From positions 1-56,100 of the forward strand of contig JAUVIV010000003.1 in NCBI GenBank assembly GCA_030592575.1: 56,100 bases of DNA, written 5' to 3'. The stretch's first letter is position 1. Each line of letters starts with the position of its first letter. The notes under the pieces are model-generated. The model saw nothing but the letters and a program-made list of their open reading frames with translations, was not told where the DNA came from and did not search any database. The DNA comes from a bacterium. Lineage in GTDB: Bacteria; Hydrothermota; UBA3073; JACQXS01. Of this stretch, positions 46,179 through 47,739 are shown piece after piece. Made by a program: the position numbers and the translations under genes.

Positions 46179-47684
46179 ATGATAGAAAAAATATTAAAAA
46201 CAGTTGAAAAGTACAAACTTCTTGAAAACGAAGACAAGGTTTTAGTTGCTGTATCAGGTGGACCTGATTCAATCCTTTTACTACGAATTCTTCAGGATAT
46301 TAAAACACAGTATAATTTGCAACTTAAAGTCGTACATTTAAATCACCAACTTAGAGAGAATGCATGGAAGGAAGCAAGTTTCGTGAAAGAACAAGCAAAA
46401 AAACTTGGAATTCCTTGCATTGTTGAGGAAAAAGATGTGAGAGGTTATGCTGAAACCCATAAACTTTCTTTGGAAGAAGCGGCAAGAGAAGTGAGATATA
46501 ATTTTTTTGAGCAAACAGCGATAAAATTCGGTATGAATAAAATTGCAACAGGGCATACTCTCTCAGATGAAGTTGAAACTTTTGTTTTAAGAGTAGCAAG
46601 GGGAGCGGGGAGAAAGGGGTTGCTTCTAATTCCGCCCAAAAGAGATGTTGGAAGAAATTCAAATTGTAAATTACAGATTATAAGACCATTAATAGAAATT
46701 ATTCGCGAAGAAATAATTGAGTTTCTTGAATCTGAGGAAATAACTTATCAAACAGATGAATCAAATTGTGATATTCAATATTCTCGTAATTTTGTGCGAC
46801 ATCGTATTGTTCCTTCGCTTCTTGAATTGACGCCTCAATTTCCAAAACAGGTGATGAAATTGCGGGAAATTTTAGGAGAGGAAGAAGAGTTGCTTGAACA
46901 ATTAACAGAGAAGAGATTGAAAAAAATTCAAAAGTTCAAAGGTTCAAAGGTTCAAAGGTTTGAAAAACAAAAGGCAATAGAGGAAACAGTGCTTGATCTG
47001 GAAGGATTTTTGGAAACTCCCTTGGCAATAAAGAGGCGGATTTTACGAGAAATATATATGCAAATTGTAAATTGCAAAGCACACATTGAAAATTATCCGA
47101 GTTTTGAAGAAATAGAAAATGCAATCAGGTATATAGAAAATAATAAAGGTGGAAAGAAATTCAATCTATGCAAAATTGACATAAGTAAAAGTTGTGGTAA
47201 AATTAGAATAGTTAAAAATGAAAAACTGACAGCAAAAAACGAGAAATTAAAAATTGAATTAGAAATTCCCGGAGAAGTTAAATGGGATGGAGTTAAAATA
47301 AAATGCAAAATGCAAAATACAAAATGCAAAGTACAGAAGTTTGACGATTTAACAAAAGTATATTTTGATTTCGACGAGGTTAGTCATCCTTTCTGGATAA
47401 GAAAGAGAGAAAATGGAGATAAAATAAAATTGGAAATTGCAGAAAAAAAGTTGAAAAATGTTTTTATTGATGATAAGATTCCTACATGGGAGAGAGAAAA
47501 AACTCCTTTGCTTGTAGATGAAAAAGGAATTTTATGGATTGTAGGAAAACGTAGGTCTAATAGAGCAAATATAGAAAATGATACTAAAAAGATAATTGAA
47601 GTGTGGGTAGAGGAAGAGAAAGGTTCAAAGGTTAAAAGGTTCAAGAGTTTAAAAGTTCAAAGGTTCAAAGGTTCAAGAGTTTAA
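46179..47684 (+). CDS. tilS: tRNA(Ile)-lysidine synthetase
   Basis: AVSGGPDS, HLNHQLR, AREVRY, TGH, IRPL, DESN..RN, C-terminal TilS domain; alternative TTG start 46170. Confidence 0.96.
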   Translation: MIEKILKTVEKYKLLENEDKVLVAVSGGPDSILLLRILQDIKTQYNLQLKVVHLNHQLRENAWKEASFVKEQAKKLGIPCIVEEKDVRGYAETHKLSLEEAAREVRYNFFEQTAIKFGMNKIATGHTLSDEVETFVLRVARGAGRKGLLLIPPKRDVGRNSNCKLQIIRPLIEIIREEIIEFLESEEITYQTDESNCDIQYSRNFVRHRIVPSLLELTPQFPKQVMKLREILGEEEELLEQLTEKRLKKIQKFKGSKVQRFEKQKAIEETVLDLEGFLETPLAIKRRILREIYMQIVNCKAHIENYPSFEEIENAIRYIENNKGGKKFNLCKIDISKSCGKIRIVKNEKLTAKNEKLKIELEIPGEVKWDGVKIKCKMQNTKCKVQKFDDLTKVYFDFDEVSHPFWIRKRENGDKIKLEIAEKKLKNVFIDDKIPTWEREKTPLLVDEKGILWIVGKRRSNRANIENDTKKIIEVWVEEEKGSKVKRFKSLKVQRFKGSRV

Positions 47685-47739
47685 AAGTTCAAAGGTTCAA
47701 AGGTTCAAGAGTTTAAAAGTTTAAGGGTTTAAAAGTTAT
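47620..47739 (+). repeat. 15-unit 8-bp tandem array (consensus AAGGTTCA) spanning the tilS stop codon
   Basis: Units AAGGTTCA/AGAGTTTA/AAAGTTCA with a perfect 32-bp higher-order duplication at 47644-47707; a shorter tract lies at 46927-46965. Confidence 0.92.

Follow-up and report, generated by a model that had tools for sequence, protein, structure and literature searches.

The stretch of DNA analyzed here (the window) comprises positions 1 to 56,100, forward strand, of contig JAUVIV010000003.1 in the assembly GCA_030592575.1 of a Hydrothermota bacterium (GTDB lineage UBA3073; JACQXS01), and our subject is its tilS gene, which carries short tandem arrays of seven- and eight-nucleotide units in its coding sequence (Table 1). 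The gene is predicted from its sequence to be a working tilS gene; it has an alternative start, TTG, at position 46170 and ends with TAA at 47682-47684. In Pfam its product matches the N-terminal PP-loop ATPase domain PF01171 (ATP_bind_3) at residues 20-209 (1.5e-53) and the C-terminal domain PF11734 (TilS_C) at residues 407-472 (7.6e-12), and it scores above the cut-offs of the NCBIfam models TIGR02432 (192.5 bits, cut-off 93.6) and TIGR02433 (46.8 bits, cut-off 20.2). An AlphaFold2 model built on 22 orthologues has a mean predicted local distance difference test value (pLDDT) of 84.2. The nearest solved structures are those of TilS (3a2k, 1wy5 and 1ni5), the best PDB and top Foldseek match being 3a2k_A, a TilS-tRNA complex (E 1.3e-34, template modelling score 0.68/0.72 over 490 columns), and the three-domain fold of the long type of TilS is present in the predicted structure. 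The preliminary description of this locus stated that the repeats leave the catalytic motifs untouched, and this is borne out: the SGGPDS motif and all 24 of the 24 invariant columns of a 22-sequence alignment are retained.

TilS makes lysidine on tRNA-Ile2(CAU), and the decoding of AUA codons depends on lysidine. A protein search of the whole assembly (2.49 Mb, 157 contigs) found no second copy of tilS, and its sole other match was to 31 residues on contig C62 that correspond to the repeat-encoded tail only. The genome contains 27,870 ATA codons (38.3 per 1000), 19 of them in tilS itself, and among the 47 tRNA genes that Aragorn reports in the assembly no tRNA-Ile(UAU) was found. From the established dependence of AUA decoding on lysidine we infer that tilS is indispensable in this organism. 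Two of the tRNA genes have the anticodon CAU where a set of three (initiator, elongator Met and Ile2) is expected; the third may be unassembled, since the assembly is 94% complete.

Table 1. Features of the tilS locus (positions are those of the window; ORF, open reading frame)
Feature	Position	Strand	Description
tilS coding sequence	46179-47684	+	501 aa, intact; from the ORF list
PP-loop motif SGGPDS	46254-46271	+	residues 26-31; repeat-free; S26, G28, D30 and S31 invariant in 22-sequence alignment
Site 1	46644-46676	+	33-nt lineage-specific stretch, against 6 nt in five order-level orthologues; from codon alignment
Site 2	46927-46965	+	octamer TTCAAAGG x4.2, encoding QKFKGSKVQRF; directly after long linker helix; predicted disordered, pLDDT <50 at residues 254-266
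Site 3	47058-47095	+	decayed heptamer AAATTGY, encoding QIVNCKAHIENY; end of helix 282-297 and following loop
Site 4	47214-47255	+	weak A-rich periodic stretch, encoding KNEKLTAKNEKL; inter-strand loop, variable in length in all relatives; pLDDT <50 at residues 349-354
Site 5	47300-47334	+	AAAATGC x4.4 (33-nt block 47300-47332, two substitutions), encoding KCKMQNTKCKVQ; half of strand 372-380 and next loop
Possible seventh site	47427-47446	+	weak AAATTGG/AAATTGC repeat; congener has a 21-nt (3 x 7) AAAAGTT insertion (KLKVKSE) there, near 47425
C-terminal octamer array	47619-47737	+	AAAGGTTC x14.9, 119 nt; spans tilS stop
ftsH-like gene	47752-49638	+	from the ORF list; name read from AAA and zinc-protease motifs in its translation

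Six segments of the gene had been called repeat-derived, and their strength on their own sequence was measured with Tandem Repeats Finder (TRF) and with a periodicity test in which the lag matches of each segment were ranked against all windows of the same length in the genome, the result being the fraction of windows that are equally good. Three of the six are significant by themselves. These are 46927-46965 (TRF 46927-46960, period 8, 4.2 copies, 96% matches, score 61; 27/31 lag matches, window fraction 3e-5), 47300-47334 (TRF 47300-47335, period 7, 4.4 copies, 91% matches, score 55-58; 24/28 lag matches, fraction 6e-5) and the C-terminal array at 47619-47737 (period 8, 14.9 copies, with a 32-nt super-unit present 3.6 times, score 190; 89/111 lag matches, fraction 4e-7). 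The other three are weak and are backed by the relatives of the gene (below): 46655-46679 (12/18 lag matches, fraction 2.7e-3), 47061-47095 (16/28, fraction 4.4e-3) and 47214-47255 (21/35, fraction 1.6e-3) show periodicity at the level that a 1.5-kb gene should reach by chance. TRF reports four of the six claimed tracts, the fourth being a weak one at 47059-47078 (period 7, 2.9 copies, score 33); 46655-46679 is absent from its output, and it calls no heptamer tract at 47214-47255. The peptide translations that had been given for the segments proved correct. The end of the gene had been placed at 47739, which is in fact the end of the octamer array; the tilS stop codon lies well inside it.

Orthologues of tilS were drawn from 21 related genomes and from a protein search (P0002, P0004, P0005 and P0013; the P0013 protein is labeled Candidatus Stahlbacteria by its source). 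Below, G000 is the genome analyzed here, G002 a congener (tilS locus L002), G003 a member of the same family (tilS locus L007), and L003 an order-level orthologue; the TilS proteins of G000 and G002 are 70% identical, and the genes about 78% in DNA. Site 1 has a weak periodic core of AAATTNN type (46655-46679) and encodes DVGRNSNCKLQ, which in the model forms the hairpin loop of residues 158-164 in the N-terminal domain; the solved TilS structures, too, differ in the length of this loop. Its insert is absent in five order-level orthologues, and the same place holds a clean CAGAGTT array in G002 (four units and a variant fifth), AGTTCAAG x9.9 in G003, and a 7-residue peptide repeat (NSQQSTV/NGQQSTY) in the unbinned P0004. 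At site 2 G000 is 18 nt longer than G002, which has the heptamer AGTTCAA x5 in place of the octamer, while G003 has AGACCAA x7. Site 3 corresponds to a clean AATTNCG array in G002, with a 7/14-nt period and a length equal to that in G000, and exceeds its counterparts in the six other family- and order-level orthologues by 9 to 21 nt; sites 1 and 3 are identical at 17 of 19 nt (the match lies at 47058-47076). Site 4 has no added length relative to the orthologues and so is not an insertion in G000; P0002 has a perfect SKKLKVE x3 there, and P0004 likewise has a 7-residue repeat. Site 5 aligns without gaps to G003 and L003 and with a gap of a single codon to G002 and to class- and phylum-level orthologues; G002 has AAAGTCA/AAAATCA x5 at this point and G003 has AAAATCC x6.4. 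Thus from G000 to G002 to G003 the repeat unit turns over at site 1 (AAATTNN, CAGAGTT, AGTTCAAG), site 2 (octamer, AGTTCAA, AGACCAA) and site 5 (AAAATGC, AAAATCA, AAAATCC), and arrays at tilS sites are found in five independent assemblies, G002, G003, P0002, P0004 and P0005. In the tilS gene of G003 (L007:1252-1700) about 46 further residues (ATGPFYNLENELQIKNSEVKSQNLNTMPQRHQGTKLHQNTDVTK) are inserted in frame immediately behind the PP-loop helix. Part of this insertion repeats a segment that lies shortly upstream of the gene (LNPLPQRHKGTNLHKNES), and it resembles a dispersed repeat of another kind.

The first 63 nt of the 119-nt octamer array are translated into a basic 21-residue tail, KGSKVKRFKSLKVQRFKGSRV, that follows the last strand of the protein (residues 481-501, pLDDT <50). 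Neither genus-level relative has this tail, and most of the others lack it as well. The tilS gene of G002 stops at a TAG 23 alignment columns earlier, where G000 reads GAG GAA GAG, and downstream of that stop there is a single array-like seed of about 30 nt. The tail probably arose when the ancestral stop codon was lost and translation ran on into an expanded intergenic octamer array. Alignment with G002 indicates that the array has also lengthened the spacer between tilS and the ftsH-like gene downstream.

Within 46179-47618 the alignment of G000 with G002 has 60 gap columns, all of them in array sites and none among the other 1182 aligned columns, the borders of the sites having been set after the alignment was viewed, starting from the coordinates in the preliminary description. 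The differences in length between these two tilS genes, 6, 18, 12, 3 and 21 nt, are all multiples of three, and the tilS genes of all relatives examined are in frame. Steps of three units (21 or 24 nt) were considered as the rule that keeps the frame and were rejected, the observed differences being 3, 6, 12, 18, 21 and 36 nt. The arrays are internally 86-100% alike, which exceeds the approximately 78% DNA identity of the genes between species, so the arrays are younger than the species split.

The suggestion that the segments lie in loops or disordered parts of the protein is largely right. All four stretches with pLDDT <50 (residues 254-266, 301-303, 349-354 and 481-501) lie inside sites 2, 3 and 4 and the tail, and the exception is site 5, which makes up half of a conserved strand. 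That the segments are insertions holds for 46644-46676, 46927-46965, 47058-47095 and the C-terminal tail, and it fails for 47214-47255 and 47300-47334, which have no extra length; the latter aligns largely without gaps to conserved TilS secondary structure, the outcome that the preliminary description had named as refuting. The accompanying idea of strong insertion pressure filtered by selection needs to be amended, in that the same sites hold other units, and once another unit length, in the relatives. Array sites that are long-lived and rewritten appear to be a better fit than random insertion with a filter after it.

Contigs from four metagenome runs were searched for tilS. One exact contig of 1319 nt, from a run that is possibly the source of the assembly, shows a single form over 46346-47664; in the C-terminal array the contigs are fragmented. 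One contig of run X4 skips 46604-46677 at <95% likeness. Contigs of the four runs (three studies) pile up at 46898-46965, 47297-47353 and 47639-47752, and in X4 the summed word depth over the AAAATGC tract rises to 8355, the gene itself having about 12 in X1. These are the positions of the three strong arrays, which must therefore be present at many further loci or in many further organisms of the samples.

The tilS segments had been proposed to belong to a wider repeat system, and the genome agrees. TRF rows with a score of at least 50, compared with a 5th-order Markov simulation, number 26 against 0 for period 7 and 13 against 0 for period 8 (and, for periods 14 and 16, 29 against 1 and 25 against 0). 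A rough gene call gives 2014 ORFs covering 87.6% of the genome; 59 of the 71 merged heptamer arrays (score at least 45) lie wholly in ORFs, 3 at an ORF edge and 9 between genes, while 28 of 47 octamer arrays are intergenic. Four of the 2014 ORFs, tilS among them, have three strong arrays, and genes with two or three arrays include those for PurL, NadC, an activase-like protein and secreted FG-GAP proteins. The site 5 unit AAAATGC recurs at 8 of the 59 in-gene heptamer arrays, always in the sense orientation (background class frequency 1.7e-3, P about 1e-13), and an AGAGTTC unit is present in three G000 genes as well as at tilS site 1 of G002. The modal array has about 4.5 units, and the in-gene heptamer arrays have a second TRF length mode near 32 nt, with soft boundaries; exact runs are too few in this genome for histograms of their lengths to inform. 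Two general explanations were considered and rejected: an A-rich sense-strand bias of in-gene arrays (39/59 against a background of 58%, P 0.14), and loss of mismatch repair, both mutS (945 bits) and mutL (390 bits) being present and intact. There are six inverted pairs within 46100-47800, and none is a hairpin built from array segments.

The genes for PurL and NadC behave in the same way. All four of the sites examined in them carry heptamer arrays in congeners and in G003, with units that differ (PurL site A, for example, has CAACTCA in G000, CGATTCA in G002 and CCGAATC in G001), and their total lengths are equal to, or no more than 12 nt different from, the non-periodic sequence of the outgroups G006 and G004. 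The site and the period persist, and the sequence is replaced. G004 and G006 are order-level relatives that have no arrays in tilS. At one NadC site the outgroups have arrays too, AAAAATC x4 in G006 (L052) and CAAGATR x9, adding 36 nt, in G004 (L053), so the process that makes arrays is not confined to the family to which the window belongs.

Scans of species-representative genomes for exact arrays extend this beyond the phylum (the counts are lower bounds, and abundances are not comparable between units). At least 119 loci have (AAAATGC)4, at least 125 have (AGAGTTC)4 and at least 120 have (AAAGGTTC)3, in many phyla and with isolates and long-read assemblies included. A control, (AGAATAC)4, chosen as absent from the arrays of this genome, is equally widespread (at least 121 loci). 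A special set of units common to all bacteria is thereby rejected, and the units of this genome are not such a set; heptamer arrays in general are widespread in bacteria. Run lengths were taken from 80 loci per scan, which cover arrays at least as long as the search pattern, and the following values hold among the matches listed. Exact-period runs of AAAATGC are 33-34 nt long in 34 of 80 cases, and of the 39 runs between 32 and 34 nt, 24 begin in the same phase; the same length class holds 20 of 76 runs of AGAGTTC and 22 of 76 of the control AGAATAC, and 32 of 73 octamer runs are 29-31 nt long. After correction for phase detectability the length peak is clear only for AAAATGC. Some of these arrays are AT-rich blocks amid flanks of up to 69% G+C.

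We favor, with moderate confidence, an explanation in which slippage-type arrays (made by slippage or template switching) perpetuate themselves at tolerant sites and are filtered for frame. The tolerant surface sites of TilS (in a hairpin loop, where the linker helix ends, in two loops and one strand-loop of the C-terminal domains, and at the C-terminus) would have come to hold arrays of 7- or 8-nt units through a mutational process that operates across the whole genome and its relatives, presumably slippage, or a switch of template from one short direct repeat to another, while DNA is replicated or repaired. Once periodic, a stretch would remain a hot spot and be repeatedly homogenized, replaced and degraded. 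As the units are not multiples of three, only those changes that are in frame, free of stop codons and compatible with a loop should survive in a single-copy, indispensable gene, and a surviving array, read through all three frames, would give a peptide repeat of seven or eight residues; the arrays themselves would do nothing for TilS. We prefer this because it needs no new machinery and because it fits a turnover that outpaces speciation, the confinement of indels to arrays, and the growth of an intergenic array into the gene.

Several observations weigh against this explanation. A step of a single unit (7 or 8 nt) is a frameshift, and the differences seen (3, 6, 12, 18 and 21 nt) are mostly not whole multiples of three units and so are left unexplained by simple slippage of one unit at a time. 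Nor would slippage by itself be expected to replace sequence without a change in length, which is what is found at site 5 of tilS and the two sites of NadC. The recurrence of AAAATGC in the genome hints at copying from array to array or at strong selection of units, and the preferred size of 29-34 nt, seen across phyla and echoed by the second mode in this genome, is not predicted by open-ended slippage. Units at orthologous sites are no more alike than others (mean distance 2.8 at 5 sites, against 2.35 at best rotation for 20 non-orthologous pairs, a small and weak comparison), so that descent with concerted evolution was rejected as giving no signal in unit similarity at this low power. Finally, assembled contigs cannot show variants, and slippage was not seen directly.

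In view of the lengths, the length-neutral replacement, the recurrence of units and the preferred size, block writing or array-to-array copying stays alive as a minority explanation. On this view, which we think rather unlikely, discrete blocks of about 30-34 nt are written or inserted at receptive sites, of which tilS has several, by a dedicated, or at any rate specific, process; candidates are the reiterative copying of a short template in gap repair, template switching to another array, and the integration of preformed fragments. The clustering of run lengths at 33-34 nt (29-31 nt for the octamer) and the AT-rich blocks within GC-rich DNA, both among the matches listed, speak for it, as do the length-neutral replacements in tilS and NadC, the recurrence of a few units (AAAATGC, AGAGTTC) and the near identity of sites 1 and 3; moreover, site 1 of G002 is exactly 33 nt longer than the insert-free orthologues. 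On the other hand, neither conserved flanks nor target-site duplications nor inverted ends were seen at six AAAATGC arrays or in tilS, and the length differences at array sites vary from 3 to 36 nt. After phase correction the control unit shows a less pronounced size mode, in a sample limited to runs of at least 28 nt, and the control is as widespread as the recurring units, which are therefore not special across bacteria. It is slightly more doubtful still that one process acting across phyla, distinct from ordinary slippage, writes blocks of about 30-34 nt from a reiterated template, often with no change in length, and returns to receptive sites. If it were so, the surface loops of TilS, PurL and NadC would be continually re-coded at the DNA level, and tilS, with six or seven sites, would be a natural reporter of the process.

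A quite improbable alternative is that the repeat peptides are kept because they help TilS, through tRNA contacts made by lysine-rich loops or the basic tail, or that the arrays are regulatory or pausing elements. TilS binds tRNA via its C-terminal domains, and the best fold match is a tRNA complex; the 21-residue tail and several of the segments are rich in K and R, and periodicity persists at the sites while the sequence changes. However, the tail is missing from both genus-level relatives and most others, like arrays are present in unrelated proteins and in intergenic DNA, and the congener's peptides differ wholly from site to corresponding site (NSNCK against SSEFRVQS), so there is no conservation of residues at the sites.

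It is very improbable that the tracts are contingency loci whose changes in length switch or vary tilS within the population. Changes of one 7- or 8-nt unit shift the frame, as they do in phase-variable genes in the available portions of PMC4692102 and PMC8262952. But tilS is single-copy, ATA codons are heavily used and no tRNA-Ile(UAU) was found, so that by established knowledge of AUA decoding the off state should be lethal; the internal arrays are short and broken by substitutions, every relative examined is in frame, and the contigs show one form, although this last is weak evidence. The chance low complexity of an AT- and lysine-rich gene, or an artefact of a 157-contig metagenome assembly, can hardly be credited even though three segments reach only the top 0.2-0.4% of windows in the genome, because the other three rank at 6e-5 or better, the Markov simulation gives no heptamer or octamer arrays at score 50, independent assemblies carry arrays at the same tilS sites, and the units are present in isolate and long-read genomes as well; this explanation is largely refuted for 46927-46965, 47300-47334 and 47619-47737 and could apply only to 47214-47255.

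Other arrays were seen in the course of this work. Within the window, an ORF carries AACTCAC x4.9 at 27712-27745 (peptide THNSQLTTHNS), of a type present at four in-gene arrays of the genome, and a 14-mer, TTCCGGATTCCAAA x2.1, is in an ORF at 25419-25448. Tandem 18-21-nt units of the type TTGTCATTCGAACCCTTCGC lie at 42927-42981 and 54519-54603; this family (GTTCAGAATGACAAGCGAAGG and variants) makes up many of the 50 period-21 arrays in the genome. Short arrays with 8-10-nt units are clustered within a few hundred bases of one another at 8069-8353 and 29568-29722, the units of these clusters being CACGAAAA, CACAGATTTG, TTCTCTGCG and TTTATCCGTG, and TTCTCCGTG and TTCTCTGTG. On contig C36 (L031:3564-3692) a 129-nt array of a 24/27-nt unit, CCCGAAGTAGCGCGGAGGTTTATC, is at the 3' end of mutS; the mutS frame is 947 aa long and its match to the family model ends near model position 800 of 840, so MutS may have a repeat-encoded C-terminal extension.

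Essential genes are expected to be cleared of tandem repeats with a unit length not divisible by three, yet here such repeats are about as common in genes as chance placement would give. They account for every difference in length between the TilS proteins of two congeners, and in each species the same loop sites have been overwritten by new units, which makes the arrays a main source of the indels and loop changes that arise as this lineage evolves; to judge by the scans across phyla, they may have this role in many other bacteria too. On the practical side, segments of this kind swell alignments, look like insertions and give rise to disordered tails specific to a lineage. The tilS gene records a fast and little-studied route of bacterial protein change and is a compact test bed for it, with six or seven sites, three or more lineages, one change from heptamer to octamer, and a stop codon lost into an array.

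Among known systems, the Rickettsia palindromic elements and their like are palindromic repeats, dispersed and at least about 100 nt long, that are tolerated in frame in loops of housekeeping proteins; in-frame repeat DNA in loops is common to both, but the tilS arrays have no inverted-repeat structure. With the contingency loci of host-adapted bacteria the tilS tracts share short units in coding sequence, where a change of one unit is a frameshift, and differ in being in an indispensable single-copy gene, short, imperfect and in frame in every relative seen. Our literature searches, including the available portion of PMC12699852, found no account of in-frame 7- or 8-nt arrays at conserved sites of essential genes. 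Repeats of constant size and variable sequence, with units of 52 or 20-21 nt, are discussed as non-coding in the portion available of PMC8161180, where their size is taken as constrained; a fixed unit size with a sequence that varies from family to family within one species is common to those and to the arrays described here, which have units of 7-8 nt and are mostly coding.

Two other systems are comparable. Heptanucleotide simple sequence repeats are over-represented in prokaryotes, among them the tandem heptamers of cyanobacteria and the GGGAATC and GGGGA(T/C)T repeats of Xanthomonas and Nostoc (Rehm et al. 2015, PMC4692102, as far as its available text goes). Like the arrays in our genome, with their modal size of about 4.5 units, those are head-to-tail arrays of 7-nt units that occur genome-wide and far above expectation, with a clear preference for about four units. 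As described there, they are G-rich, over-represented in non-coding and under-represented in coding DNA, and discussed as formers of G-quadruplexes; ours, on the other hand, have A-rich and diverse units and lie mostly in ORFs, in frame in housekeeping genes. The repeats of Borgs (Schoelmerich et al. 2023, PMC9879509, again from the text available) are fast-evolving, A-biased and in ORFs, and encode disordered peptide repeats; their in-ORF units have lengths in multiples of three and are virtually unique to each region. The tilS arrays resemble them in keeping the frame, in their predicted disorder, with every low-pLDDT stretch of the model inside a segment, and in differing between close relatives. 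They differ from them in having units of 7 or 8 nt that recur at many loci and that, read over three frames, give a peptide period of 7 or 8 residues.

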